Shown here: piece after piece, positions 1 through 30,147 of the stretch
Numbering within the stretch: the stretch's first letter is position 1
Layout: each line of letters begins with the position of its first letter
Virus genome (UHGV): UHGV-0213645
Source: a virus
DNA length: 43,486 nucleotides
Reading direction: 5' to 3' (one strand)
The notes under the pieces: model-generated
Told to the model about the DNA's origin: nothing
Databases searched by the model: none
Seen by the model: only the letters and a program-made list of their open reading frames with translations
Made by a program: the position numbers and the translations under genes

Positions 1-1029
1 ATGGCTACGAACGAATCTGCCGTAATGACTTCCCATAACCTACTCAACTACTCCGGCCTGCTCTTTAACAAGGGCAATACCCGCACCCCCTTTTCCACCC
101 TGATTGGCGGCAAGAGCCGTACCGTTCAGGCTTGGAAATTCCCCACCTCTCTTTCCTACACCACCGGCGGCGGCACCTCGCAGCCCGCGATTACCGAAAC
201 CGCGTCCCTGACCGCGCCCACACCCGGCTTTGTCACCCGCACGCAGGATGTGAACGTCTGCCAGATCTTCCAGCGTGCCGTCTCCATCTCCTACGGCAAG
301 ATGTCCAGCATGGATCAGCTTTCCGGCCTGAACATCGCCGGTCAGCAGGCCAACCCCGCAAATGAGCTGGATTTCCAGGTTGCAAATCAGATGCAGGAAA
401 TGGCCAACGACGTTGAATACACCTTCCTGAACGGTGCGTATCAGGATGGCACCTATGACGACACCGCCTACAAGACCAAGGGCATTACCGCCGCGATCAC
501 CACCAACGCCAAGGCGCTGACCGGCACCCCTGGCCTGAGCTTTTGGGCTGTGGCTGAGCTGATCCAGATGATCGGCGATGCGCACGCCCCCACCGATGGC
601 CTGGTGCTGATGGCTCGTCCCGTCAACATCATGCAGCTTAACGCGGATGCTTCCTCTAACGGCCTGACTGTCGTTCCCGCTGCCCGCGAGATTAACGGTC
701 TCAAGATCGACACCCTGATCACCCCGTTCGGCTCTGTCGGCATCGTTGCGAACCCCTACGTCGCCTCTGGCACCGCGCTCGTCTTCAATCCCTCGATCTG
801 CGCGCCCGTCGAAATGCCAGTACCCGGCAAGGGCAACTTCTTCCTGGAGCCCCTGTCCAAGACTGGCGCGGCAGACAAGTATCAGATCTACGGCCAGCTT
901 GGTCTTGACTATGGCGCTGAATGGTATCACGGCAAGCTGACCGGCCTGGGCACCACCTTCACCGCGCCTACCTATAGCAAGAAGGTCTATGTCGCTGGCG
1001 GCGAAGTGACCACCAAGACCGGCACTTAA
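1..1029 (+). CDS. Major capsid protein (SU10/DUF5309-like)
   Basis: 342 aa. Follows the scaffold gene across the circular junction (RBS AAAGGAG at the window end). Motifs QIFQRAVSIS, E..FLNG and YQIYGQLGLDYGAE are typical of this capsid family. Confidence 0.85.
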   Translation: MATNESAVMTSHNLLNYSGLLFNKGNTRTPFSTLIGGKSRTVQAWKFPTSLSYTTGGGTSQPAITETASLTAPTPGFVTRTQDVNVCQIFQRAVSISYGKMSSMDQLSGLNIAGQQANPANELDFQVANQMQEMANDVEYTFLNGAYQDGTYDDTAYKTKGITAAITTNAKALTGTPGLSFWAVAELIQMIGDAHAPTDGLVLMARPVNIMQLNADASSNGLTVVPAAREINGLKIDTLITPFGSVGIVANPYVASGTALVFNPSICAPVEMPVPGKGNFFLEPLSKTGAADKYQIYGQLGLDYGAEWYHGKLTGLGTTFTAPTYSKKVYVAGGEVTTKTGT

Positions 1030-1046
1030 GAAGGGAGGGGGCAAGC

Positions 1047-1382
1047 ATGACGCATGACGAACAGATTTCCATCCTGCGCGCCATGGTAGGAACGGATGAA
1101 GCCGAATCGGTGCTTGCCTCCTTCCTCTCCCTGGCCGGGAGCAAGATCATCAACCGCGCCTATCCCTTTAATCCGAACATTTTAACCGTCCCTGAGCGTT
1201 ATCGTTCGCTTCAAGTTGAAATCGCTGCTTACATGATGAACAAGCGCGGCGCTGAGGGGCAGACCGGGCACAGCGAAAACGGCGTATCCCGAACATACGG
1301 GAGCGCCGACGTGCCCGAGGCCATGCTGTCCGCCGTAACGCCATATGCGGGGGTGATATCCCATGCAGAATCTCAGGCGTAA
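1047..1382 (+). CDS. Head-tail connector protein (SPP1 gp15/HK97 gp6-like)
   Basis: 111 aa directly after the capsid gene. Motif NKRGAEGQTGHSENGVSRTY. RBS GGGAGG. Confidence 0.85.
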   Translation: MTHDEQISILRAMVGTDEAESVLASFLSLAGSKIINRAYPFNPNILTVPERYRSLQVEIAAYMMNKRGAEGQTGHSENGVSRTYGSADVPEAMLSAVTPYAGVISHAESQA

Positions 1383-1746
1383 CGAGCGCGCCTTCTGGTA
1401 CGCGGTATACCAGGGGCGTGAAATCGTGGCGGACGCTGACGGCAATCCTGGCGGCGTAAAGGTGCTCCATGGCAACCCGGTCAAGGCCGTGGGCAATATC
1501 TCTCCTGCCAACGGACAGATCACGCAGTATCAGTTTGGCGAGAATGCTGATTACGACCGCACGATCATCCTGACCGGCACAGACTGGCCGATAGACACAT
1601 CCTCCGTGTTGTGGGTCGAAACTCCGCCCGACATCAAGGACGGCGGCAGCACGGATACCCCGCACGATTACCGCGTGGCATGTGTGGCCAAGTCCCTGAA
1701 CAGCACGGCGATAGCCATAAAGCGGGTGAACGTTAGTGGCGCATAG
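1363..1746 (+). CDS. Head closure / head-tail adaptor protein
   Basis: 127 aa, syntenic position, C-terminal DYRV..VAKSLN motif. Confidence 0.65.
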   Translation: MQNLRRNERAFWYAVYQGREIVADADGNPGGVKVLHGNPVKAVGNISPANGQITQYQFGENADYDRTIILTGTDWPIDTSSVLWVETPPDIKDGGSTDTPHDYRVACVAKSLNSTAIAIKRVNVSGA

Positions 1747-2218
1747 AGTGATCGTCGCATCCCTGAGCGATATGGATCGCGCGGCGCGTGAGGTGCTGGC
1801 CTACCGGGACGAATTGCAGCTAAAGCTAAACCGGCTGCTGGCAGTCCTGTCGGAGGACGGCGCGGAGTACGCCCGCATGCAGGTGGCCACGCTTGGAGCC
1901 GTGTACACAGGCGGCCTGCTGGACAGCATAGAGGGCTACTACAGCGCGTCCGAGCACTGCGGCATTATCAAGGCTGGCGCGTGGTACGCAGCGTTTGTGG
2001 AATATGGCACGGGCGTTGTGGGCGCAAACTCCCCGCATCCAAATGGCAACGGGTGGGATTACGACGTAAACGGACACGGTGAGGCTGGATGGCACTACTT
2101 GCTCGATGAACAATGGCACTGGACGCGCGGCATGCCCAGTCGCCCGTTTATGTACAACACGGTGCAGGAGCTTGAACGCATCTGCCAGACCGTTGCAATG
2201 GAGGTGTTCGGCGCGTGA
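1736..2218 (+). CDS. Neck / tail completion protein (HK97 gp10-like)
   Basis: YAAFVEYGTG and TRGMPSRPFMY motifs. GTG start overlaps the previous gene. Confidence 0.8.
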   Translation: MAHRVIVASLSDMDRAAREVLAYRDELQLKLNRLLAVLSEDGAEYARMQVATLGAVYTGGLLDSIEGYYSASEHCGIIKAGAWYAAFVEYGTGVVGANSPHPNGNGWDYDVNGHGEAGWHYLLDEQWHWTRGMPSRPFMYNTVQELERICQTVAMEVFGA

Positions 2219-2610
2219 TCGATATCGAAAATGAAGTAGTATCCCGAATCTCCGCCGCCCTCCCCAAGGGCACATACGTAACCGGCGAATATGTATCGGC
2301 CCCGGCCGTGTTCCCGCATGTCTCCGTCGTTGAGATGGATAACTACACGCTCAAGGCCACGCAGACGCAGGAGCTGACCGAAAACCACGCCGTGCTGACC
2401 TACGAAATCAATATCTATTCCAACCTGAAAAACGGCAAAAAGGCGCAGTGCAAGGCGCTGGCCGCCGCAGCCGATACGGCCATGCAGAAAATGGGCTTTA
2501 CGCGCATCTCCCTGCAGCCGGTACAGAACATTTTGGACGGCACAATCTACCGCATGACGGGCCGTTATACAGCAGCCGTATCCACGGATAAGACCATTTA
2601 CAGGAGGTAA
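2215..2610 (+). CDS. Tail terminator protein
   Basis: 131 aa between the gp10-like gene and the tail tube gene. FPHVSVVE and YEINIYS motifs. Confidence 0.7.
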   Translation: MIDIENEVVSRISAALPKGTYVTGEYVSAPAVFPHVSVVEMDNYTLKATQTQELTENHAVLTYEINIYSNLKNGKKAQCKALAAAADTAMQKMGFTRISLQPVQNILDGTIYRMTGRYTAAVSTDKTIYRR

Positions 2611-2616
2611 TAAGCA

Positions 2617-3051
2617 ATGGCTACTTCTACCTATCAGACGTATCTGATGTACAAGGCCGCTTCTGGCGGCTCTGCTACTTATGGCAAACTGACTGACATC
2701 ATCTCCCTTCCCGACCTTGGCGCGCCCCCGGAGCAGATCGACGTAACCACGCTGTCTGACCGCCAGCGGAAGTATATTCCCGGCGTTGAGGATACCGGCT
2801 CCCTCGAATTTGAGGTGCTCTACGATCAGGACAGCTTTGACACCATCAACAAGCTGGGCCGTGAAACCGAATATGACTTTGCGGTATACGCCGGTGCTGA
2901 CAGCGACGGCGCGCCTGATGGCCACAATGGCAAGTGGACGTTTAAGGGCAAGATCGCCATCGTCAAGACCGGCGGCGGCGTGAACGAGTATCAGGGCGCT
3001 ACCGTGACCATCTATCCCTCTACGGATATTTCCTTTGCCAAGGGCACTTAA
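2617..3051 (+). CDS. Major tail tube protein
   Basis: PDLGAPPEQIDVTTLSD...YIPG motif, RBS GGAGG, syntenic position. Confidence 0.85.
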   Translation: MATSTYQTYLMYKAASGGSATYGKLTDIISLPDLGAPPEQIDVTTLSDRQRKYIPGVEDTGSLEFEVLYDQDSFDTINKLGRETEYDFAVYAGADSDGAPDGHNGKWTFKGKIAIVKTGGGVNEYQGATVTIYPSTDISFAKGT

Positions 3052-3069
3052 TAAGGGAGGCTGATTGCC

Positions 3070-3408
3070 ATGTCCAAGCAGATCAAAATCACCTACATGG
3101 ATAAAACCTACACCCTGGAATTTTCCAAGGGCTCTGTGCGCCGCATGGAGCAGGCCGGCTTTGACCGCACGGAGCTGGCGGCAAAGACCATGACCATGCT
3201 GCCGCAGCTTTTCGCTGGCGCGTTTATCAAGAACCACGCGCTGATCGATAAGAAGATCCCCGAAAAGATCTACGACCTGCTGCCCAACAAGCTTGACATG
3301 CTGGACAAGCTGACCGAGATGTTCGAGGAGCCCTACAACGCCATGTTGGAAGACCCCGATCCGCAGGAGGTCGAAGCAAAAAACGTGTCCTGGACGGCTT
3401 CCTGGTAA
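3070..3408 (+). CDS. Tail assembly chaperone (gpG-like, DUF5055-like)
   Basis: 112 aa between tail tube and tape measure genes. Ends with the slippery heptamer A AAA AAC. Confidence 0.8.
   Translation: MSKQIKITYMDKTYTLEFSKGSVRRMEQAGFDRTELAAKTMTMLPQLFAGAFIKNHALIDKKIPEKIYDLLPNKLDMLDKLTEMFEEPYNAMLEDPDPQEVEAKNVSWTASW
3378..3384 (+). other. Programmed -1 ribosomal frameshift site (A AAA AAC)
   Basis: X XXY YYZ heptamer in frame near the end of the chaperone gene. The -1 frame is stop-free from 3384 into the ORF at 3483 (RVLDGFLVKQDGPSESDTHWTFTELFEKALPYY-MAIGM...). Confidence 0.85.
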
Positions 3409-3845
3409 AGCAGGACGGGCCGTCTGAATCGGATACGCACTGGACGTTTACAGAGCTCTTTGAAAAAGCGCTCCCTTATTATATGGCAATCGGCATGACG
3501 GTAGGCGAGTATTGGGAGGGGGACAATTCCCTTCCCGCCGCCTATCGCAAGGCCGACCAGCTCAGGCAGGAGCGCATCAACGAGCAAGCCTGGCTGCAGG
3601 GTATGTACATCTACGACGCTTTGGCGCGCGTATCCCCGATCTATCACGCCTTTGCAAAGGCCGGAACCAAGCCCGTGCCGTACCCTGATAAGCCATACGA
3701 TTTTAAGCGCAGAGAGCAGCCCAAAACGCTGCGCGAAAGGGAATCCGCAGCAGAAGAAAGCGCGCGCAAAATGGCCGACCTGTTTGAACGGTTTAACGCC
3801 AAGCGCGGAAAGAAGAAGGAGGCGATAACAGATGGCGGTAGTTGA
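3384..3845 (+). CDS. Tail assembly chaperone gpT portion (gpGT frameshift product)
   Basis: -1 frame continuation of the gpG-like gene. PYYMAIGMT..EYWEGD motif. No clear RBS before ATG 3483. Confidence 0.75.
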   Translation, partial: RVLDGFLVKQDGPSESDTHWTFTELFEKALPYYMAIGMTVGEYWEGDNSLPAAYRKADQLRQERINEQAWLQGMYIYDALARVSPIYHAFAKAGTKPVPYPDKPYDFKRREQPKTLRERESAAEESARKMADLFERFNAKRGKKKEAITDGGS

Positions 3846-6096
3846 CACCCTCGAAATCCAAATTGTTGATAACGCCAAGGAAGCTGCCTCCCATATGGAT
3901 CAGCTTGCGCAGTCGATGAACCGCGTGGGCAAGGCCAAGAGCGCGCCCCAGGCGCTAAGGGAAGTGGCCGATGAAACCGTGCATGTTGCGGAGGGGACGC
4001 GGCAGTCTTCTGAACGGCTTGGCACGCTGACCGCGCGGCTAAAGGAATTCGGCGCAAGGGCAAAGGCTTCTTTTGGAGGACTTGGCGATTCTTCGGAAAA
4101 AGCCGAAAAGCATACAAGCGGCTTGGCTTCTTCTCTTGGCCGTTTTATCAAATATCGCCTGTTCTTCGTTGCATTCTCGCAGCTTTCCAGCGCGCTTAGC
4201 GAGGGAACAAGCAACCTGTACCAGTGGAGCAAGGCAATGGGCGGCAGCTTTGCAAAAGCCATGGACGCTGGCGCCGCTTCGTCTGCGACGCTTAAAAACG
4301 GGCTGGCTGCTGCGCTGTCCCCTGTGATTATTTCTGTTATTTCTCTGTTTAACACCCTTGCCGGGGCGATCAATTTTGCCCTCAGCGCTTTAAGCGCCCT
4401 TCTTTCTTTGTTCGGCGGTTTTGGGACGTTTACAACGGCAACCGACGCTGCAAACGATTATTCCAAGGCCGCGGGCGGCGCGGCAAAGGCAAACAAGAAT
4501 TTGCTGGCCAGCTTTGATGAATTGAACGTACTGCAGCAGCCCAGCGGCGGCGGTGGTGGCGGCGGCGGTGCTATCGGGAAGTTTGACTTTGATGACTCTC
4601 TCATTACGGACAAGATGAAGCGCATCGGCGCAGCAGCGCTTGTGCTGGGTGCGGCGCTGTCGGCCGTGTTTCCAAACTCCAAAGCGCTAAAGTACGTAGG
4701 TATCTTGCTTACGATTTATGGCGCAATCAACAACATCAAGGCGATTGCTGACCAGTGGAAAAACGGCATTACGGACAAAAACTCATACAAATGGCTGTGG
4801 AGCCTTGCAAGCGCAGCTACGGGCGCTTACATGGCGTTTGGAAAGCTTGGCGCAGGATTTACGCTTTTGATTGGCGGCATCGCAGGTGTTGTTACGGCGA
4901 TCAAGGATATCATCGACAAAGGCAAAGCGACGCAGGAATCCCTTGTGCAGATCTCTCTTGGTATTGCTGCGATCTCCGGCGCAATTGCAATCCTGACAGG
5001 CAACCCAATTTCGTTGATTATCACTGCTGTTGCTACGGTTGCGGCGCTGATTATCAAGTATTGGGAGCCGATTAAAACCTTCTTTGCCAACCTGTGGGAA
5101 GGCATCAGCAAGGCGGCAACCAACGTCTGGAATTGGATTTCTGAGCGCGCTCAGAGCGTTGCGGATTTTGTGCAAAAAATATGGGCGGCTGTAAAGAAAT
5201 TCTTTTCTGACCTTTGGTCTGGCATCCAGGTTGCAGCAACCAACGCATGGCGCATCATCCTGATTGCAATTAACGCAGTTGTTGAGCCGGTGGAAAAGGC
5301 TTGGAACGCCGTTGTTGAGTTTTTTGCTGGCGTGTGGGAAGGAATCAAAAAGGCCGCATCGGATGCATGGGCGGCTATCCAGACTGCGATAAACAATGTA
5401 ATTGCGCCTGTAGAAGAAGCTTGGGAAGCGGCGAAGAAATTCTTTTCTGATGCATGGTCTGCTATTCAGGTGGCCGCAACCAATGCATGGTTTGTCATCC
5501 TTACGGCCATTAATGCGGTCATTGATCCGGTGGAGAAAGCGTGGACTGCAGCTAAGACCGTTTTTGATACGGTCTGGTCTGGCATCCAAACGGCGGCAGA
5601 AACCGCGTGGAACGCCATCAAAGATGCGATCAATGCTGTACTTACGCCCATCCAGAACGTAATTGACAAACTCAATGAGTTTTTCGGCCTTCCGTCCTCA
5701 AAAACTGTTGATGTAAATATCAATCAGCACACGACGTATACGTATACAAGGCAAGACGGAACTTCTTTTGAGTACGGAACAAGTTCTTCTGGCCCGCGTG
5801 GCTTTGCTTCCGGCGGCATCGTCCCATCCGGCCAGATGTTCATTGCCCGCGAGGCTGGGCCTGAACTGGTTGGCACCATGGGCGGGCATACCGCAGTCGC
5901 CAATAACCAGCAGATTGTCACCGGCATCTACGAGGGTGTAAAGGCGGCCATGCAGGACGCTGGCAGCAGCAATAGCGGAGGTACAATGAGCGTCAATGTG
6001 TACCTGGACGGCAAGCAGATCACGGCGGCAGTCGAAAAGCGCCAGCGCGAACGCGGCGCGACCATCTATCCGGGAGGTGTGCTCAGTGGCGTTTAA
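3832..6096 (+). CDS. Tape measure protein
   Basis: 754 aa, Ala-rich, hydrophobic central segments, Trp-periodic amphipathic repeats, C-terminal FASGG...AREAGPELVG motif. Confidence 0.92.
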   Translation: MAVVDTLEIQIVDNAKEAASHMDQLAQSMNRVGKAKSAPQALREVADETVHVAEGTRQSSERLGTLTARLKEFGARAKASFGGLGDSSEKAEKHTSGLASSLGRFIKYRLFFVAFSQLSSALSEGTSNLYQWSKAMGGSFAKAMDAGAASSATLKNGLAAALSPVIISVISLFNTLAGAINFALSALSALLSLFGGFGTFTTATDAANDYSKAAGGAAKANKNLLASFDELNVLQQPSGGGGGGGGAIGKFDFDDSLITDKMKRIGAAALVLGAALSAVFPNSKALKYVGILLTIYGAINNIKAIADQWKNGITDKNSYKWLWSLASAATGAYMAFGKLGAGFTLLIGGIAGVVTAIKDIIDKGKATQESLVQISLGIAAISGAIAILTGNPISLIITAVATVAALIIKYWEPIKTFFANLWEGISKAATNVWNWISERAQSVADFVQKIWAAVKKFFSDLWSGIQVAATNAWRIILIAINAVVEPVEKAWNAVVEFFAGVWEGIKKAASDAWAAIQTAINNVIAPVEEAWEAAKKFFSDAWSAIQVAATNAWFVILTAINAVIDPVEKAWTAAKTVFDTVWSGIQTAAETAWNAIKDAINAVLTPIQNVIDKLNEFFGLPSSKTVDVNINQHTTYTYTRQDGTSFEYGTSSSGPRGFASGGIVPSGQMFIAREAGPELVGTMGGHTAVANNQQIVTGIYEGVKAAMQDAGSSNSGGTMSVNVYLDGKQITAAVEKRQRERGATIYPGGVLSGV

Positions 6097-6472
6097 GGCT
6101 CTTGTAAGCGTCGGCTCGTATGACTTCCCGGAGCCGTCCACCTACTCCGGCAACACCGCCACCCTGGTAGACGCTGGCCGCAACGTGGAGGGCAAGGTGA
6201 TCGGCGCTGTCATCCGGGACGATGTGGCCAAGGTGGAGCTGACCTGGAGATACCTGACCGTAGCACAGTGGGCGAACATCAACAAGTGCTTCAAGGAATC
6301 CGCTGGCGGCAAGTTTTACAATTCTGTTACGTTTTTCGATCAAAGCGCGGGCGGCTGGGTAACAAAGACCATGTACGTCAGCGACCGCAACGCCAACATG
6401 TTCCGGCGCGACCCGGAGAACGGAAGTATTTTGGGCTGGCTGGAATGCAAGCTGTCGCTGGTGGAGGTGTAA
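6086..6472 (+). CDS. Distal tail (Dit-like) protein
   Basis: GTG at 6086 preceded by GGAGG. Directly downstream of the tape measure gene. YVSDR motif. Confidence 0.65.
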   Translation: MAFKALVSVGSYDFPEPSTYSGNTATLVDAGRNVEGKVIGAVIRDDVAKVELTWRYLTVAQWANINKCFKESAGGKFYNSVTFFDQSAGGWVTKTMYVSDRNANMFRRDPENGSILGWLECKLSLVEV

Positions 6473-6475
6473 GGC

Positions 6476-8263
6476 ATGGAAACGGTAACAAGCGCCTGGA
6501 AGGAAGTGCAGAGCCAGCAGCTTCTAAACGAAAGCTATATCGAAATTTCCTTTGCCATCACCGACCCTGACGCGATCATTGACGCTACTGCATCGGATAA
6601 CGGCGCGCTTTCCATCGCCGATACCGCGTCCATCGTGAGCCAGGACGAAAAGAGCATAGTCCCCTACGCGACGCTGGAGGAAAATCTCTGGTTGCTGGAC
6701 GGCAGCCGGAGGTTTATCCCCGCGTCCAATCAGGGGGATAATGGGTATATCGGCAACCTGTTATCCGACGAAAACTGCGCATTTACGACAAATCCTGTCA
6801 TTGATGTGCAGTTTTCTGCAAATCACGACGTTTTAATTCCCGGCGCTACCATTGTGTGGGGCACGGCCTATGACGAGTACGCCAGGGCGTTTACCGTCAG
6901 CGCCTACAAGGGCACCGCGCTGGTTGCGCAAAAGCAGATCACCGACAATACGTCCGTCACGTCCATTGTGCAGATGGATATCACGGACTACGACCACATC
7001 CGCGTGGAGATCGTCAAGTGGTGCCTGCCGCATCACAGGGCGCGCATCGCCCGGCTGTTTATCGGCATCGAAAAGGTGTACGCCAAGTCGGATGTTTTGG
7101 AGTATCAGCACGAGCAGGACGTAGACCCCATCGGGGCAACCGCGCCCATCAATAAGATGACCTTTGCCATCGACAACAGCGACGATGCATACGACCCCAA
7201 CAACACCAGCGGCCTGTCCAAATACCTGATCGAGCGGCAGCGCATCCAGGTAAAGTACGGGCTGAAGATGAACGACGGCTCCATCCGTTACATTCGAGGC
7301 GGCGTGTTTTACCTGTCTGAATGGGAAGCCCCGCAGAACGGCATCAAGGCCAGCTTTACCGGGCGCGACCTGCTGGAATTTATGCAAAAGCCCTATGTAA
7401 AGGGGCTCTACAACGCCAGCGGAACCAGTCTGTACGACCTGGCAGACAGCGTATTTAATGAAGCAAGCCTGCCGCTCAACGACGACGGCACCAAAAAGTG
7501 GGTGATCGACAACAGCCTGAAAACCATCACCACCGTTGCCCCGCTGCCCATGAGCCCGCTAAGCGAGTGCCTGCAGTATATCGCCCAGGCCGGGCGCTGC
7601 GTGCTCTACTCTGACCGCGCGGGCATGCTGCACATGGAGCCGATCTCTGCGACCAAACAGGACTATGCGATCACCGCCTTTAACTCCTTCCAGCGGCCTG
7701 AGATTTCGCTGCAAAAGCCGCTCGGAAGCGTGGATACCAAGGTGTACAACTACTTCACCGGCGAGACCGGGCAGGAGCTCTTTTCCGGCCAGGCCACCGT
7801 GAACGGCACGCAGGAGCTGACTGTCACCTACTCGCAAAGCGCAATCAATGTAAGCGCTACCGTGACGGGCGGCACGCTGGTATCGGCCAATTACTACACC
7901 AACGCCTGTGTGCTCAAGATCACAGCCACTGGCGCCGTCACCATCCAGATCACCGGCGATATCCTCAAGACGTCCACGTCCGATTATGTTTTGCAGGTGG
8001 ATGATAAGGGCGAGGCGCAGGGCGTAAACAACCCCCTGATTGCATCCTCCGAGATGGCCGCAGCCGTCAGCCAGTGGGTAAAGGCGTGGCTGTCCAACCG
8101 CCGCATAATCACCATTGGCGAGTGGCGCGCGGATCCCCGTCTGGACGCTGCCGACCTGATCGATTCGCAGAATAAGTTTGATACCGACGACGTGCGCATT
8201 ACGTCTGTAAAATACACCTTTGCGGGCGCATTCCGCGGCAGCGGGGAAGGGAGGATTGTCTGA
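6476..8263 (+). CDS. Tail tip / baseplate hub protein
   Basis: 595 aa beta-rich protein after Dit. C-terminal WRADPRLDAAD motif typical of siphovirus tail tip proteins. Confidence 0.65.
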   Translation: METVTSAWKEVQSQQLLNESYIEISFAITDPDAIIDATASDNGALSIADTASIVSQDEKSIVPYATLEENLWLLDGSRRFIPASNQGDNGYIGNLLSDENCAFTTNPVIDVQFSANHDVLIPGATIVWGTAYDEYARAFTVSAYKGTALVAQKQITDNTSVTSIVQMDITDYDHIRVEIVKWCLPHHRARIARLFIGIEKVYAKSDVLEYQHEQDVDPIGATAPINKMTFAIDNSDDAYDPNNTSGLSKYLIERQRIQVKYGLKMNDGSIRYIRGGVFYLSEWEAPQNGIKASFTGRDLLEFMQKPYVKGLYNASGTSLYDLADSVFNEASLPLNDDGTKKWVIDNSLKTITTVAPLPMSPLSECLQYIAQAGRCVLYSDRAGMLHMEPISATKQDYAITAFNSFQRPEISLQKPLGSVDTKVYNYFTGETGQELFSGQATVNGTQELTVTYSQSAINVSATVTGGTLVSANYYTNACVLKITATGAVTIQITGDILKTSTSDYVLQVDDKGEAQGVNNPLIASSEMAAAVSQWVKAWLSNRRIITIGEWRADPRLDAADLIDSQNKFDTDDVRITSVKYTFAGAFRGSGEGRIV

Positions 8264-8748
8264 TGGCCGAATGGATTGCGCCTATCTACGACCGCACCAG
8301 CGAGGACGTAGCGCAGGCAAAAACGCAGATAAGCGCCTGGAAGGCAACGCCCCTGTCCGATACGCCGCTGCCGACCGCTGCGCTCAAGGGCTGCATGAAC
8401 GTGGCCGATATGAACCGCATCGAGGGCGACGTGCAGTACCTCTACGATCTGCTTACCGCTATGGGATATACCCCATCTGTCAGCACAAAAAGCTGGGCAA
8501 TGGGCAGCCTGCCAACAGCGCAGGACGTGCAGCGTATTATCGCAAACGTGCAAAGCTTTGTAGATTCCTTTGCAAAGCCTGCCGCAGCGCCTGATCTGCC
8601 GTCCAGCATGAGCGGGTACGCGCAGGTGAACGCCATCGAGGAAAATCTCTACTGGATGAACTACCTTTTGGCCGTTGTGCCAAGCAGCTACCAGAAATGC
8701 AACATGTTTAAGGCCGGGGCAAGACGCATGCTCCCGCTCAGGAGGTGA
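8263..8748 (+). CDS. Minor tail protein
   Basis: WIAPIYDRT and DMNRIE motifs. Located in the tail module. Confidence 0.55.
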   Translation: MAEWIAPIYDRTSEDVAQAKTQISAWKATPLSDTPLPTAALKGCMNVADMNRIEGDVQYLYDLLTAMGYTPSVSTKSWAMGSLPTAQDVQRIIANVQSFVDSFAKPAAAPDLPSSMSGYAQVNAIEENLYWMNYLLAVVPSSYQKCNMFKAGARRMLPLRR

Positions 8749-8752
8749 GACT

Positions 8753-9217
8753 ATGGCCTATGTAGCAAGGACAATAAAAGACCGTGTGGCGGTTGGAGAT
8801 GATTGTTTCGAGCTCGAAACGCTTTCTGATGGCCGTGTGAAGCTGACCCCTTCGCCAGATTCGGTCTCTGAGCCGGGCACGGATATCAACAAGGCGCTTT
8901 TGCAGCTCATTGAAGACCGCGTTGTCGGCCTGATGAACGGCATCTTTACCGCGACGGCCACCCTCCCCTCCACCGGCTGGACGGGGGACGCAGCGCCATA
9001 CGCCCAGGAGGTAACGGTAACGGGCATCACGGCTGCGGATACGCCGATGGTGGATATCGTGCAGACGGGCACGGAGGCCACGGACGAGCCCATGCGCGAG
9101 GCGTGGGGCGTGGTCACGCGCATGGTGACGGGCGCTGGCAAGATCACGGCATACGCCAGCGAAAAACCGACCGTGAATATCCCGATCCAGTTGAAGGTGG
9201 TGAAAAACAATGGGTGA
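8753..9217 (+). CDS. Tail fibre-associated protein
   Basis: ATG 8753 after GGAGGTG. W...APYAQEVTVTGITAADTP motif. Confidence 0.55.
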   Translation: MAYVARTIKDRVAVGDDCFELETLSDGRVKLTPSPDSVSEPGTDINKALLQLIEDRVVGLMNGIFTATATLPSTGWTGDAAPYAQEVTVTGITAADTPMVDIVQTGTEATDEPMREAWGVVTRMVTGAGKITAYASEKPTVNIPIQLKVVKNNG

Positions 9218-10199
9218 GTGTTTGCTTGTTCGGCGCGGCGCTAAGCCCACGCTCAAGGGCATCAGCGTAAAGACCCCGCCTGCAAAATTGGAATACCTGG
9301 CTGGCGATACCTTTGACCCGACCGGACTTGTGCTGACGGCGAACGTTGGCGGCGTACCGGTGGACGTGACCACGGGCTACACCGTAACGCCCGATCCCCT
9401 GACAGCGGATACAACGGCGGTTACGATCAGCTATACCCTGGACGGCAAGACCGCGACAACGGCGCAGGCGGTGACGGTGAAATCTTATGATCCTGTGTTT
9501 GCCAATAATACTTGGGAAAAAATTATTGAAGCCGCAGCATCCGGCAGAGCCAGCGAATTGTGGCAGGTAGGCAGCACAAAACCCTATACCATCGGAGATG
9601 AGACCTACACCGCGCGGATTATCGGCTTTGACCACGATGCGCTGGATGCGACTGACGCAAGGTACGGCGACGCATCCTACAACGGCGGGAAAAACAAGGC
9701 CGCAATCACACTGGAAATGGTGGAATGCACGTCAACGTCCTATCAAATCCATACCAGCAACAACCAGAACGTTGGCTGGAGTGCCTGCGCTCTGCGCAAT
9801 AATACGCTGCCTGCAATCAAGGCGACAATCCAGAGCGAGATCCGGAACGCCATCCGTACCGTAGTAAAAAAGCGCGCTGAATCTCCAAGCGCTGATTATG
9901 GCAAGTATTCGGAAACGCCGGACACGTTATTTATCCTCTCATTGGTTGAGTACAATCGTAAGAGCAGCGCGCATGCGTCGTGGGCAGACGAAGGAACAAC
10001 ATATGCCTATTACGAGGCTGGAAACGCGATAACAAAGAAGAAAAGAGGCGAGAGCTCCAACTCTGCATATTGGACTGCAAGTTCGAAGCACTATACAGCA
10101 TCGAGCTATTACTACCTGTTCATTGACACTGACGGCGAATCATCAAAACAAGACTACATGAACAGCAAGAAACCAATTGCCATCGCCTTCTGCCTCTAA
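9210..10199 (+). CDS. Putative receptor-binding protein: Ig-like (Big_3) domain plus DUF6273/C-type-lectin-like domain
   Basis: N-terminal PAKLEYLAGDTFDPTGLVLTA Ig-like motif. RIIGFDHD, LFILSLVEY and YWTAS...AFCL C-terminus. Confidence 0.7.
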   Translation: MGECLLVRRGAKPTLKGISVKTPPAKLEYLAGDTFDPTGLVLTANVGGVPVDVTTGYTVTPDPLTADTTAVTISYTLDGKTATTAQAVTVKSYDPVFANNTWEKIIEAAASGRASELWQVGSTKPYTIGDETYTARIIGFDHDALDATDARYGDASYNGGKNKAAITLEMVECTSTSYQIHTSNNQNVGWSACALRNNTLPAIKATIQSEIRNAIRTVVKKRAESPSADYGKYSETPDTLFILSLVEYNRKSSAHASWADEGTTYAYYEAGNAITKKKRGESSNSAYWTASSKHYTASSYYYLFIDTDGESSKQDYMNSKKPIAIAFCL

Positions 10200-10214
10200 G
10201 AAAGGAGCAAACCC

Positions 10215-10871
10215 ATGTACACCATCACCAAATCCGGCGTGGAGATCGCCGTCACCGAGCGGCCTACCTACATCCGTTTGCAGTCCAACGGCGCGTTTGG
10301 CCTGTGCACGCGCGAGCAGGCGCAGGGCGTGGCGTGGGAGGGTGTGCCGTACCATGTGGAGGGTATGCCCGCCATCGACCGCGAGGGCGTCGAGACCGTC
10401 ACCCTGACTGAGATAGACGGCGGAAAACGCATCACGCAAAACGAGCAGCAGGCTGCGTCATCCCGAAAAATTGCCGAGGTGGCTTTTATCACCATGGCCG
10501 AGGCCGACACCATCCCGCAGGCCGTGGCTGCGCAGTATCCGGAGGCATTCCCAGCGTGGCAGGCGGGCGTGGCCTACAAGCTCAACCAGTACCGCACGGA
10601 CACCGTGGACGGCGAAACAAAGCTGTATCGCTGTGTCCAGGCGCATACCTCGCAGGCGGGCTGGGAGCCGCACAGCGCCGCCTCTCTCTGGACGCTGGCC
10701 GCTGACCCCAGTGAGGCATGGCCTGCCTGGATTTACCCGACCGGCGCGCATAACGCATATGCCCTGGGCGCGCAGGTGACGCATAACGGCAAGCGCTGGC
10801 GCAGCACGGTGGCCAATAATGTGTGGGAGCCGGGAGCCTACGGCTGGGAGGAAGTGACGACCGATGAATAA
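10215..10871 (+). CDS. Protein with two carbohydrate-binding (CBM5/12-like) modules
   Basis: WQAGVAY...YRCVQAHTSQAGWEP..SLW and AYALGAQVTHNGKRWRS..NNVWEPG..GW motifs. Confidence 0.7.
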   Translation: MYTITKSGVEIAVTERPTYIRLQSNGAFGLCTREQAQGVAWEGVPYHVEGMPAIDREGVETVTLTEIDGGKRITQNEQQAASSRKIAEVAFITMAEADTIPQAVAAQYPEAFPAWQAGVAYKLNQYRTDTVDGETKLYRCVQAHTSQAGWEPHSAASLWTLAADPSEAWPAWIYPTGAHNAYALGAQVTHNGKRWRSTVANNVWEPGAYGWEEVTTDE

Positions 10872-11760
10872 CAACGCGCAAAAGATCATCGAAGCCGCCA
10901 AGTCTCAGCTCGGCAATCCTTACGTATTCGGCATGTGGGGGCGGGAATGCACGCCCTCCGTGCGCCGCCAATATGCTGGCTATAACCCCAGCCATAAGCG
11001 CGCCATCTTTAAGGCGTGCCCCGTGCTGAGCGGCAAGCAGTCCAATTGCGACGGCTGTAAATGGCAGGGGAAGTTAGCCTTTGACTGCCGGGGGTTTACC
11101 TACTGGTGCCTGTCGCAGGCGGGTATCACGATTAAGGGCGGCGGCGCAACCTCGCAGTACAACACGGCGGCAAACTGGGTGCGGCGCGGCGATGTCGGCG
11201 ACATGCCCGACGTGGTCTGCTGCGTGTTCCAGCGCAGGAACGGCAAGATGCAGCACACGGGCCTGCATATCGGCGGCGGCAAGGTGATCCATTGCTCCGC
11301 TGGCGTTCAGTGGGGCGATACCAGTGATAAGGCGTGGACGCACTATGCGATCCCTGCCGGGCTGTATACTGCCGAAGAAATCGCAGCGGCGGGTAAGCCC
11401 GAACAGGAAAAGCCCGACCTCAGTAAGCCAACGGAGGGCGTTGTATTTAATCTCAGGCGCGGCAGTAAGGGCGCGGATGTGACCAAGCTCCAAACCGCCC
11501 TCAACGCCTTAGGCTACGATTGCGGCACTGCTGATGGTATCTTCGGCGCGAAAACCGAGGCCGCCGTGCGCAATTTCCAGCGCGACCACAGCCTGACCGT
11601 GGACGGCATCGCCGGTAAGGCCACGCAGGAAGCCCTGTATGCCGCTGAGAGCGTCCCGCGCGCTACCTATACCGTCACCCTGCGCAACGTGCCGCAGGCG
11701 GACGCTATCGCGCTTACCGCCAAATACGCAGGCGAAATGATACAGGAGGCGATCACGTAA
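10864..11760 (+). CDS. Endolysin: NlpC/P60-family peptidase plus peptidoglycan-binding domain
   Basis: LGNPYVFG, FDCRGF (catalytic Cys), HTGLH..VIH. C-terminal LRRGSKGADVTKLQ...DGIFGAKTEAAVRNFQ..DGIAG (PG_binding_1). Confidence 0.88.
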   Translation: MNNNAQKIIEAAKSQLGNPYVFGMWGRECTPSVRRQYAGYNPSHKRAIFKACPVLSGKQSNCDGCKWQGKLAFDCRGFTYWCLSQAGITIKGGGATSQYNTAANWVRRGDVGDMPDVVCCVFQRRNGKMQHTGLHIGGGKVIHCSAGVQWGDTSDKAWTHYAIPAGLYTAEEIAAAGKPEQEKPDLSKPTEGVVFNLRRGSKGADVTKLQTALNALGYDCGTADGIFGAKTEAAVRNFQRDHSLTVDGIAGKATQEALYAAESVPRATYTVTLRNVPQADAIALTAKYAGEMIQEAIT

Positions 11761-14539: not shown

Positions 14540-14743
14540 GTGATCCCCATGCGCTTTGATCGCATCCATCAATCGCGCATCGACGCGGCGGAGGCCGCCT
14601 ATGGCCTGACGGACGACGAGCGCGAGGTGCTGTCCCTGTCCCGGCGCGGTAAATCCGTCGTCGCCATCGGTATGGAGCTGGGAATGAGCACCCGAACCGT
14701 CAGCCGCCGCAGAGCGGACATCATGCGCAAGATCAACACTTGA
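14540..14743 (+). CDS. LuxR/GerE-type HTH-only transcriptional regulator
   Basis: GLTDDEREVLSL..RGKS..AIGMELGMSTRTV..R...I.RKI motif. Confidence 0.7.
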   Translation: MIPMRFDRIHQSRIDAAEAAYGLTDDEREVLSLSRRGKSVVAIGMELGMSTRTVSRRRADIMRKINT

Positions 14744-14747
14744 CAAC

Positions 14748-14769
14748 GCCCCCTTCGGGGGGCTTTTTT
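14748..14769 (+). terminator. Intrinsic terminator
   Basis: GCCCCC-TTCG-GGGGGC followed by TTTTTT. Confidence 0.9.
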
Positions 14770-14785
14770 ATTTTGCAAAAAGTGG

Positions 14786-14814
14786 TTGACAAACGGACAA
14801 AAAGATGGTATTAT
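14786..14814 (+). promoter_or_regulatory. Sigma-A promoter of CRISPR-like small RNA
   Basis: TTGACA (14786-14791), 17 bp spacer, TG-N-TATTAT (14809-14814). Confidence 0.8.
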
Positions 14815-14839
14815 AACAGCGTCGGGAGATAATCCCGCT

Positions 14840-14914
14840 GTCAGGAAGCAATTCCTGTGAATTGAAACGAAAACAGAAATGGAAACGATCATGATCTCAT
14901 GGTCGCATCCGCAA
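14840..14914 (+). CRISPR. Type I-C-like mini-array / solitary repeat unit: repeat, 33-nt spacer, partial repeat
   Basis: GTCAGGAAGCAATTCCTGTGAATTGAAAC (14840-14868; GTC start, CAGGAA-GCAA-TTCCTG hairpin, GTGRATTGAAAY tail as in I-C repeats). Spacer 14869-14901. Then GTCGCATCCGCAA, resembling the 5' part of an I-C repeat. No cas genes in the genome. Confidence 0.75.
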
Positions 14915-14916
14915 AG

Positions 14917-14944
14917 AAGCCTTGCACTGCGCAGGGCTTTTTTG
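14917..14944 (+). terminator. Intrinsic terminator of CRISPR-like RNA
   Basis: AAGCCTTGC-ACTGC-GCAGGGCTT followed by a T run. Confidence 0.85.
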
Positions 14945-15050
14945 TTGCCCAAATGGCGCGAAGCTGGCGTGAATGTGGCGCTTTTACATCCGTGTTTTGT
15001 GCGACAATCAGCACACCGGGAAACCCGGAATAACACAAGGGAGGATTCTC

Positions 15051-15632
15051 ATGGACGTTGAATACACTCGCAGAGGCCAAGGCAATCTGAACACTGTGCT
15101 TGGCGCAATCGGCACGGCTGGCGCTGTTGGCATCCTGAACGGCGGCCTAGGCGGCCTGTTTGGCGGCGCGCGCACCGTGAACGTAAACGGCAACGGCGAA
15201 TGCAGCGAAAACCACCTGGTGGATCGCTACGAAGCCTCTCAGCAGGCGAAAATTGCCCAGCTTGAGACCGAAATTAAGCTGCGCGACAGCAACATCTATA
15301 CCGATCAGAAGAGCCTTGCGTTGTACCAGTACATTGACGGGCAGATCAAGGAGATTCGTGGTGAACTGTCCGATCAGCGCGTACACAACCAGCGCACCGA
15401 GGATAGCTTTGTCCTGGCGCGCCAGGATCTGGCTACCGTTAAGGCCGAGCTGGACGGCAAGATCAAGATGGAAGCCGAAAAGCGCTGCTGCGGCGATAAC
15501 TCCATCGTGACCTACGCAAACGCCACCTTCTACCCCAAGCAGGTTGCTGACGTGACCGTAGGCACTGCCACCACCGCGCAGAGCACCTATAATCCGCTGC
15601 CCAAGTGCGGCGATTGCTGCTGCAACAACTGA
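15051..15632 (+). CDS. Hypothetical protein (Gly-rich hydrophobic N-terminus, coiled coil, Cys-rich tail)
   Basis: ATG 15051 after GGGAGG. Ends KCGDCCCNN. Confidence 0.7.
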   Translation: MDVEYTRRGQGNLNTVLGAIGTAGAVGILNGGLGGLFGGARTVNVNGNGECSENHLVDRYEASQQAKIAQLETEIKLRDSNIYTDQKSLALYQYIDGQIKEIRGELSDQRVHNQRTEDSFVLARQDLATVKAELDGKIKMEAEKRCCGDNSIVTYANATFYPKQVADVTVGTATTAQSTYNPLPKCGDCCCNN

Positions 15633-15693
15633 CAAAAGCGGGAGGGCTGGCGCTGACCGGCTCTCCCCGTTTTTCTGATTGGAGGATTACGTA

Positions 15694-16041
15694 ATGGTTA
15701 GTATTGAGACCATAGAGCGCGGCCTTGCTCAGTATATAGACGCTGAATTGCTGCCTAAATTGCCGCAGGACGGCCTTAAAGGCTTTGGCGTGCGGTCGAT
15801 GGCTACGGCTATTGTAATGCGCGGTGGACGGCTCCTGAGCGCTTACGCGACCTGGAAGCCTGCGCAGATCATGGGCGCTATTACGCCTGACGGCGCAGTT
15901 GATATAGATTTTTTGCGCGATGTTTTCAAGGGCGGCATCCAGCAGGGCGGCCAGAAAATTGATTTGCCGCTGGGCGTGTCGCTGAGAATTACGCCTGAGG
16001 ATGTAGATCACATATACAGCTACATCATGCAGGCGCAGTAA
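15694..16041 (+). CDS. Hypothetical protein
   Basis: ATG 15694 after GGAGG. Co-oriented with its neighbours. Confidence 0.65.
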   Translation: MVSIETIERGLAQYIDAELLPKLPQDGLKGFGVRSMATAIVMRGGRLLSAYATWKPAQIMGAITPDGAVDIDFLRDVFKGGIQQGGQKIDLPLGVSLRITPEDVDHIYSYIMQAQ

Positions 16042-16051
16042 GGAGGAAATC

Positions 16052-16360
16052 ATGAAAGAACTGAAAGAAGTCATCCGCGACATCGGGGAAATCCTGGACA
16101 GCGCGGAGATGTACGCCAAGGAAGCCGTCAAGCACAAGACGCAGTATCCTTCCCTGGCCGGTGTCTATTGCCGCATCGCGCAGGACGATCTGTCTCATGT
16201 CGATATGCTGCATAAGCAGGCCGTTGAGATGATTGGCGAGCAGAAGCGCTCCGGCGCGACCGTGCCCGAATCCATGCAGGCTGTGTGGGATTTTGAGCAC
16301 GAGCGCCAGATCGAAGACGTGGCGGACGTGAAGCGTCTGATCGATATGTACAAAGAGTGA
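16052..16360 (+). CDS. Ferritin-like four-helix-bundle hypothetical protein
   Basis: AGGAGG RBS. E..DSAEMYAKEA...IAQDDLSH...LH pattern. Confidence 0.55.
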   Translation: MKELKEVIRDIGEILDSAEMYAKEAVKHKTQYPSLAGVYCRIAQDDLSHVDMLHKQAVEMIGEQKRSGATVPESMQAVWDFEHERQIEDVADVKRLIDMYKE

Positions 16361-16432: not shown

Positions 16433-16495
16433 CCCCTGCTAAGGGAGTAGACTGGGATAACCGGTGCGAGAGTTCAAATCTCTCCTTCTCCGCCA
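16433..16495 (+). mobile_element. attP core duplicating the 3' part of host tRNA-Ser(GCT)
   Basis: CCCCT-GCT-AAGGG anticodon arm, long variable arm, GAGAGTTCAAATCTCTC T-arm, ending TTCTCCGCCA. The 5' half is absent. Adjacent to the integrase 3' end. Confidence 0.88.
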
Positions 16496-16498
16496 AAT

Positions 16499-16540
16499 GT
16501 GCGAAATCTGCTTGAAAATAGCCGGTTTCGCACTTTTTTG
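16499..16540 (+). terminator. Intrinsic terminator after the tRNA fragment
   Basis: GTGCGAAA...TTTCGCAC hairpin followed by TTTTTT. Confidence 0.7.
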
Positions 16541-22419: not shown

Positions 22420-23028
22420 ATGTGCCGACTTAAATCGTGCCTGGTGCTCAAGGATCGCGTATTCTGCCCATACTACGACAGCCACCAGGACATGCTGGAC
22501 AAGCTGGGCATCAAGGACACCTACCTGGGAGCCAGCAAAACCTTTGTGCGGGTGGAGCTTATGCCGCCGGACTGCGTGGAATCGCTGATGGAGCCGCTGG
22601 ACAGGTGGACGCTCAGTGTGGATCAGGATGTAACGCCCGAGTGGTGGGATGTGGAGGCCGACCGGCAGCGCGTGGAAGAAGCCGTTGAGGCATGGCGCAG
22701 GGAGCACGTTTTTGCGGAGGGCGAACACAGCGTTAAGGCTGGAGAGGTTTACGCCTACGGAAGCGCCACGGTGAAAGCCTTCGGCAGCGCCACGGTGAAA
22801 GCCTACGGAAGCGCCAAGGTGTATGCCTGCGACAGCGCCACGGTGAAAGCCTTCGGCAGCGCCACGGTGGAAGCCTACGACAGCGCCACGGTGGAAGCCT
22901 ACGGAAGCGCCACGGTGAAAGCCTTCGGCAGCGCCACGGTGAAAGCCTACGACAGCGCCACGGTGGTTTATCCCTATAAAAATAAGATCGTCTATCCCGC
23001 TGGATGGACGGCGGAAACGCACGATTAA
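22420..23028 (+). CDS. Protein with octapeptide (A[YF][GD]SATV[KE]) repeats, likely beta-solenoid
   Basis: AAGGAGG RBS. Nine 8-aa repeats. Confidence 0.75.
   Translation: MCRLKSCLVLKDRVFCPYYDSHQDMLDKLGIKDTYLGASKTFVRVELMPPDCVESLMEPLDRWTLSVDQDVTPEWWDVEADRQRVEEAVEAWRREHVFAEGEHSVKAGEVYAYGSATVKAFGSATVKAYGSAKVYACDSATVKAFGSATVEAYDSATVEAYGSATVKAFGSATVKAYDSATVVYPYKNKIVYPAGWTAETHD
22753..22968 (+). repeat. Nine tandem 24-bp coding repeats
   Basis: Unit approximately GCCT(A/T)CG(G/A)(A/C)AGCGCCACGGTG(A/G)AA, repeated at 24-bp spacing. Confidence 0.95.
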
Positions 23029-23331: not shown

Positions 23332-23407
23332 GCCGGTGTAGTTCAAGAGGCAGAACGGCGCACTTGTAACGCGCGCGTTGTCGGTTCGATTCCGGCCACC
23401 GGCTCCA
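23332..23407 (+). tRNA. tRNA-Thr(TGT)
   Basis: 76-nt cloverleaf: GCCGGTG/CACCGGC acceptor, GTTC/GAAC D-stem, CT-TGT-AA anticodon loop (one A-C mismatch in the stem), GTCGG-TTCGATT-CCGGC T-arm, encoded CCA. Confidence 0.85.
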
Positions 23408-29930: not shown

Positions 29931-30147
29931 CGCTACGACTGCTACGACCGCTACGAATGCAAATTAAATATTATGTTTTCTCGCTCTCTCTGTTTTTTGT
30001 CAAGTAGAAAATGCGCTCTCGCGCACGGAAATAAAAAATTATGTCGTAGCGGTCGTAGCGGTCGTAGCGATGCATGAAAAACGTAGGAAAATCAACGGGT
30101 TTTAGCGCTACCACTTGAAAACATCATGTCGTTACAGGTCGTAGCGC
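29931..30147. repeat. Putative replication origin: inverted iteron clusters around an AT-rich core
   Basis: GCTACGA x3 (29932, 29941, 29950) and its reverse complement TCGTAGC x3 (30044, 30053, 30062), each at 9-bp spacing, around an AT-rich stretch right after the helicase gene. Confidence 0.7.

Follow-up and report, generated by a model that had tools for sequence, protein, structure and literature searches.

The phage genome UHGV-0213645 carries a type I-C crRNA-like unit of its own. The DNA analysed here, called the window, is the whole stretch of 43,486 nt, and the unit lies in it, flanked on one side by a LuxR-type HTH gene (14549-14743) and on the other by a 193-aa gene of unassigned family (15051-15632). 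The unit is real, and its product is likely an anti-CRISPR RNA. We suggest that the phage would transcribe an RNA of roughly 125 nt, which host Cas5c would cut behind the hairpin of a pseudo-repeat. The modelled product would be a short crRNA mimic consisting of an 11-nt handle, a guide of about 17 nt and a 3' hairpin, and it would load into host type I-C Cascade and use it up. That a crRNA mimic is cut by host Cas5c, loaded into Cascade and has an anti-CRISPR effect is, for the repressor and decoy readings taken jointly, quite probable. Of these we favor a Cracr-type anti-CRISPR RNA with a repressor guide, at a probability of roughly 0.45. The loaded Cascade would be steered as a non-cutting repressor onto a promoter that drives a cas or defence gene of the host, and this target would lie in host strains or loci outside our sample. 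We prefer the repressor guide because the guides are invariant, swapped as a block and promoter-like, and because the build is like that of CreR RNAs.

Layout and variation of the unit

The window belongs to a temperate tailed phage of the Bacillota type, with capsid, portal, terminase, tail, endolysin, holin, integrase and repressor families. A scan of the 52 longer ORFs, out of 308 listed, recognised no cas family. The unit thus sits on a mobile element outside a CRISPR-cas locus, as Cracrs do. An earlier note had read from this DNA a promoter, a hairpin, a 29-nt repeat, a 33-nt spacer, a partial repeat and flanking terminators, and every one of these parts is present at its place (Table 1). 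Over the whole 127 nt of the unit the fold has a z score of -5.6, with 0 of 200 shuffles as good. A search of Rfam returned no family at the unit. An ORF of 60 codons from 14879 was set aside; it runs across the terminator, and its start is absent in the phage contig L004.

Table 1. Features of the crRNA-like unit and the attachment-site core (positions in the window)
Feature	Position	Strand	Remarks
Upstream intrinsic terminator	14748..14771	+	6-bp GC stem (14748-14763) and T tract; closes the LuxR-type HTH gene and insulates the unit
Sigma-A type promoter	14786..14814	+	TTGACA 14786-14791, 17-nt spacer, TG-extended TATTAT 14809-14814
5' leader hairpin, then GCT	14821..14839	+	Predicted fold: 5-bp stem, 5-nt loop (hairpin 14821-14837)
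Shortened type I-C pseudo-repeat, 29 nt	14840..14868	+	GNRA loop on a 6-bp stem that closes at 14857; tail of 11 nt
Predicted usable guide, 17 nt	14869..14885	+	Up to the main hairpin (predicted fold)
3' hairpin, 8 bp	14886..14905	+	Stem 14886-14893/14898-14905; built from the remaining part of the 33-nt spacer and the opening bases of the relic repeat
Relic second repeat	14902..14921	+	GTCGCATCCGCAA at 14902-14914, 33 nt past the first repeat
Downstream intrinsic terminator	14911..14946	+	Stem 14911-14945; fold z -4.3; absent from the pattern-scan list
Attachment-site core beside the integrase	16433..16500	+	100% identity over 68 nt in G052 and 64 nt in G114

The promoter scores 11/12 in a pattern scan and is the top site within 12-18 kb, where 7 sites were found against 5.0 expected, so that the scan alone gives no enrichment. 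Its -35 hexamer and TG are conserved in 6/6 aligned copies and its spacer varies; position 14810, a conserved A in the -10 hexamer, is changed in the copy of sequencing run X1. The leader hairpin is unchanged in 6/6 copies; runs X1 and X4 differ in one loop base, 14831. Since the leader begins with GTC, it may be a repeat that has lost its tail; its similarity to host regulatory repeats is not significant (P 0.17). A scan for the leader alone gave 68 matches, and a repeat follows in four of them, all copies already known.

The pseudo-repeat is the core of the unit. The window has one motif like a type I-C repeat, compared with a total of 11 in 200 shuffled windows. The tail of the pseudo-repeat, 14858-14868, is the predicted 5' handle. 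It is of the host-family kind, which bears out the earlier claim that the repeat ends as type I-C repeats do, and at position 14860, an A in the window, the relatives have G, giving the most frequent tail of the host family. The loop occurs as GCAA or GAAA. The expected likeness to a host array held for this tail and not for the whole repeat: no host array carries the pseudo-repeat, and the best agreement with 83 host-family arrays is about 20/33 positions. It was not found in the genome_contigs collection either. Rather than array repeats, the pseudo-repeat resembles the repeats, likewise shortened, in regulatory RNAs of the hosts themselves. As in crlRNAs, the hairpin lies immediately 5' of the conserved 11-nt handle.

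The stretch between the pseudo-repeat and the relic repeat (14869-14901) does measure 33 nt, the length given earlier for the spacer, and according to the predicted fold it likely serves as a guide of roughly 17 nt. The main hairpin after the repeat is predicted to begin at guide position 18 in the window and in the differing version of L004, which has another hairpin, of 5 bp, at the same offset. The usable guide is therefore likely about 17 nt and not 33. In the free RNA a weak 3-bp extension of the stem could form at guide positions 13-15. A guide of about 16 nt followed by a 3' hairpin is a feature of crlRNAs, and the predicted fold of both phage versions matches it.

The second repeat is a relic. 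At spacer distance, its first 13 nt (14902-14914) are more like the 5' ends of array repeats from the host family than 1500/1500 shuffles are. Folded alone, it forms no repeat hairpin (-1.3 kcal/mol, z -0.45), unlike the first repeat, and its 3' arm may have been absorbed into the downstream terminator. L004 has another downstream terminator and lacks the GTC at the start of the second repeat. The motif TCCGCA is common to the window (14908-14913) and L004, 40-45 nt from the repeat end in both, hinting that the terminator of L004 was also derived from a second repeat.

These parts could be read as a mini-array whose crRNA, with the full 33-nt spacer, borrows Cascade against a competing phage or plasmid. 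The spacer has the commonest length in the hosts, the relic second repeat stands above chance, and spacers of viral mini-arrays are for the most part directed at other viruses in the cases described in the consulted portion of PMC10120712. However, the 3' half of the spacer is predicted to be locked in the hairpin, the relic repeat is predicted neither to fold nor to be processed, and L004 is without the GTC of a second repeat. With the outcome of the protospacer searches below, we consider a mini-array improbable.

The unit is known from five contigs besides the window, namely four IMG/VR contigs and one metagenome contig. The window guide is unchanged in L001, L002, L003 and L263, i.e., in 5/5 copies of the window type. 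Three of the related genomes (G002-G004) have no head-tail alignment to the first 10.8 kb of the window, though they keep the window guide. Recent exchange may be partly responsible for this invariance. L004 (G005) is the closest relative in IMG/VR, with 96% identity over 1-11739, the structural genes. It shares the leader and the repeat stem with the window, and the guide, small hairpin and terminator are all swapped, beginning at the first base past the repeat. The alternative guide contains TATAAT.

In the alignment the -35 hexamer, the TG and the transcribed part are conserved, and the promoter spacer and the upstream terminator differ; in L002 and L003 the latter is exchanged for another terminator. 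Variable positions of the window-type unit fall in predicted loops or the tail. Four DNA runs were compared, of which X1, X2 and X4 cover the unit, and among the listed differences (40 of 43 for X1) the only changes within the transcribed part are at 14831, 14849 and 14860. L263 differs at 14907 and 14927. In X3, 13 bases are missing across 14879-14918; this gap is consistent with the second guide type, and its identity with the L004 guide is that of a candidate. Among the loci of the 193-aa gene (the best 80 of 262 viral loci and 23 genome loci), the unit occurs at this site only in the contigs already named.

The narrow distribution, five contigs and the window, would suit a host regulatory RNA or array that was captured, is now an idle relic and travels along with the neighbouring lysis-integrase module. 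The RNA runs X12, X13, X15 and X16 contain other genes and do not cover the unit, which fits the same idea and is not evidence of silence. But the hexamers and stems are kept while the spacer, loops and terminators change, and the phage group exposes its hosts to clear I-C pressure. We therefore consider an idle relic very unlikely.

A bolder version of guide use starts from the block swap. The sister phages would share a fixed scaffold for loading Cascade and exchange the guide as a block, reprogramming Cascade against different non-cas promoters; a captured full-length spacer would have been trimmed to 17 nt by folding on the relic repeat. We find this unlikely. If true, the unit would be a natural programmable CRISPRi cassette with alleles in the phage population, and its targets would be other defence systems or rival prophages.

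Hosts and their own solitary-repeat RNAs

The host family was reached through the integrase. Among the 120 matches listed, the only named relative is Candidatus Limiplasma (55%), which we take to be a genus within the Christensenellales family CAG-74, and the family label hangs on this one relative. Starting from G011 and G070, a family of 401 genomes was reached, 127 of which have Cas5c. Of 143 Cas5c match rows, 140 were taken as host-family I-C loci and three weak ones were left out. When 1296 spacers from 88 loci were compared by BLAST, five matched the phage group, all from G114 or G052, which share one genus of 17 genomes. These two are identified as sister host genomes of the phage group. 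Both have complete I-C operons, with Cas8c of G114 scoring just below the cut-off. At no more than 5 mismatches, 4/4 spacers of G114 and 19/109 of G052 match the window or G002-G005. The protospacer flank is TTC in 12/19 cases for G052 and GTC in 3/4 for G114. The most frequent spacer length is 33 nt (3/4 in G114, 31/109 in G052). Thus, the earlier assumption of a host with type I-C machinery is well founded, as there are complete systems, spacers against this phage and an identical attachment core.

The G114 locus (L425, G114:C33) and the loci L433, L437 and L447 seem to form an I-C variant with a GTC PAM. At one G114 protospacer the window reads GCC (15421-15423). Four solitary-repeat guides in loci related to L425 have their best sites flanked by GTC. 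A literature search for a GTC PAM in type I-C returned only a type I-D paper. The G052 genome also has a three-repeat mini-array with another repeat type (L464 5767-5939, G052:C62), and both of its spacers match the window. Several host spacers match in or beside a window gene (22420-23028) that has a 24-nt (8-residue) tandem repeat.

The model for the build of the phage unit comes from the hosts themselves. In 41 of the 140 host-family I-C loci (L306-L450) there is a solitary repeat, usually shortened, in non-coding DNA upstream of cas3/cas5, no more than 3.6 kb from cas5. Its guide was taken as the next 17 nt, and a match had to reach at least 9/10 in the seed and at least 12/15 positions (6 and 12 ignored), with no PAM required. 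By this rule 29/41 guides match a nearby site in the region of their own promoter, compared with 5/410 shuffled guides. Each of the 29 sites has a flanking TTC (20), CTC (5), TTT (2) or GTC (2). By build, the host RNAs appear to be CreR-type self-repression RNAs, and the circuit is shown to be common in this gut Clostridia family.

The phage unit shares with the host RNAs a short-stem repeat, a canonical tail, a short guide, a hairpin and a terminator. Some host solitary repeats are trimmed to 25 nt with 4-bp stems. Past them, the median distance to the first strong helix is 15 nt (range 0-35); in both phage versions it is 17 nt. The likeness is one of build; in the sequence of the stem or the downstream part, similarity between the phage unit and the host RNAs is not significant (P 0.07-0.45). 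A resemblance between the window spacer and the terminator of the host element in L334 was also dropped, since local alignment did not support it (best P 0.07, at another locus).

Search for guide targets and the decoy alternative

In the 140 host-family loci (1.57 Mb), both host loci included, no PAM-flanked match of host-guide quality was found for either phage guide; the best match of the window guide there has 9/10 of the seed and 11/15 positions. In further stretches of the host genus there was likewise no PAM-flanked target of this quality for either guide, and a PAM-free search of five host-genus genomes gave 6 and 4 matches, one of them with TTT and 12/17. No similar guide occurs among the 41 host regulatory RNAs, where the best agreements are 8/17, at scattered positions, and 9/17. 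A Cracr is marked by sharing 9 or more PAM-proximal nt with a host CreR or CreA guide, and no such host guide was found in this sample of one genome per species. No host copy of the repeat tail plus a 13-nt seed was found in the metagenome_contigs collection, where the 12 matches are one phage copy and 11 unrelated sequences. For neither guide was a PAM-flanked self-target of this quality found in the window or G002-G005, and the window guide gave nothing past runs of 8-9 nt. Sampling was at one genome per species. Since differences already show among the host genus's four I-C loci, strain-level targets may have been missed.

Family-wide, the PAM plus 11 nt gave about 196 matches in 131/401 genomes, of which 31 were read. 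Two other seed patterns gave 13 matches in 12/401 genomes each, while their reversed-pattern controls gave 6 and 7; such matches are near the control level. Three single sites were considered and rejected. The match to a cas7 coding motif in G052 (GTC, 9/10 seed, 11/15) is no better than several others. The site in G194 (TTC plus 11 nt) is one match, against 12 control matches in 17 genomes. The site in G034 (L628, G034:C46, about 1499-1518, minus strand) has TTT and 17/17 of the window guide and is intergenic, upstream of nrdD. It is one of 13 pattern matches against 7 control matches, in a genome outside the host genus with no Cas5c match, and is probably due to chance.

For the mini-array reading, which calls for a phage or plasmid protospacer, none was found in 50,697 phage and 72,556 plasmid records. 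A viral search with the PAM plus 12 nt reached 24/33 at best among the at least 100 matches listed. A site that speaks for a mini-array is in the viral contig L553 (701-735), where TTC and 25/33 of the window spacer lie at the start of a gene. It is one of 20 pattern matches, within chance by a rough binomial estimate, in an unrelated contig with no link to the hosts, and is probably a chance match too.

Could the RNA be a pure decoy, like a Racr? It would tie up Cas5c and Cas7 in short useless complexes, and the guide, having no target, would only need to be unstructured. We give weight to a decoy because neither a target nor a host twin was found, and we hold it possible, as a serious second to the repressor guide. 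In addition to the negative target searches, one scaffold tolerates two unrelated guides. In L020, another phage with the gene cassette that adjoins the unit in the window, an I-C repeat runs almost straight into a terminator. A type I-C Racr protects phage according to the portion of PMC10651486 that we consulted. In the part available of the preprint by Liu et al. (10.1101/2024.10.29.618823), viral matches that lack a 9-nt match to a host guide are set aside as likely Racrs, and by this rule the phage unit is a likely Racr. However, the pseudo-repeat is well short of 90% array identity and its stem is shortened as in the host regulatory RNAs, and a decoy leaves the invariant guide and the TATAAT-bearing alternative guide unexplained.

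Relation to described RNAs and neighbouring elements

The unit is best described as a further member of an RNA class already known, the viral crRNA-like RNAs. We file it without a subtype because it departs from both Cracrs and Racrs in one defining test each. To Cracrs, as presented in the consulted part of 10.1101/2024.10.29.618823, it is similar in being a phage-borne, cas-less pseudo-repeat with a short guide and a terminator under its own promoter. That text reports type I-C candidates and gives 17-21 nt for the guides of I-F Cracrs; the experiments it describes were in V-A, I-E and I-F, not in I-C. Cracrs are defined there by a guide match to a host CreR or CreA and by a promoter target, and for the phage unit neither was found. 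Another difference is that the unit has no multi-guide array, and its alternative guides sit in sister phages.

The crlRNA and CreR RNAs (10.1101/2024.12.27.630466; 10.1101/2023.03.10.532045) are similar in having a hairpin with an 11-nt handle, a guide of about 16 nt and a 3' hairpin, and in occurring in one- and two-repeat forms, as far as the consulted parts of these preprints describe them. In Neisseria, for example, the handle of I-C crlRNAs is 11 nt long, the match to the promoter covers 16 bp and there is a hairpin on the 3' side, and solitary-repeat crlRNAs there repress the cargo systems Nezha, Gabija and CRISIS, according to the accessible part of 10.1101/2024.12.27.630466. However, in the portions consulted those RNAs lie within the CRISPR-cas locus adjoining their target, whereas the phage unit has no nearby target.

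With Racrs, including RacrIC1, the unit has in common a viral repeat mimic behind a promoter, of a subtype matched to the host, as portrayed in the consulted part of Camara-Wilpert et al. 2023 (PMC10651486). It differs in that its repeat, at about 20/33 against the 83 host-family arrays, is far below the 90% array identity of the SRUFinder rule given there, and in its apparent relic of a second repeat and its guide, which is conserved and can be swapped. Beside the unit there is no recognisable acr gene. Viral mini-arrays also consist of a repeat, a spacer and a divergent second repeat in a phage, as in the consulted part of Shmakov et al. (PMC10120712). The cases described there are of I-B and I-F1 and have seeds identical to host mini-arrays, whereas no host twin was found for the phage unit. 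The supplementary files searched of PMC10651486 (nine) and PMC10120712 (two) contained no match, and the papers listed in a literature search include none about this group of phages.

RNA anti-CRISPRs of type I-C with a repressor guide are predicted in the consulted part of the Cracr preprint (10.1101/2024.10.29.618823), which tested V-A, I-E and I-F. Here, hosts that attack the phage, two guide alleles and two I-C variants with different PAMs come together, so that a decoy and a guide can be directly tested against each other.

Next to the unit, a three-gene cassette without a Pfam or PHROG family (15051-16360) is widespread in gut phages. Its first gene has 262 viral relatives, and relatives of its last gene are present in four RNA libraries, which speaks of presence, not transcription. 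Unrelated solitary I-C repeats lie downstream of the 193-aa gene cassette in the other phages or prophages L018 (near 4399), L020 (near 4380) and L286 (minus strand). The L018 repeat has a 19-nt guide and that of L020 almost none. A match of the L018 guide to host promoters was rejected, as 40/100 shuffles were equally good. The region downstream of the cassette may be a hot spot for solitary-repeat RNAs. Elsewhere in the window there is a tRNA gene (23332-23404) and, just past a DUF927 gene, a 26-nt inverted repeat of short units, 87 nt apart (29931-30069), which is a possible replication origin.
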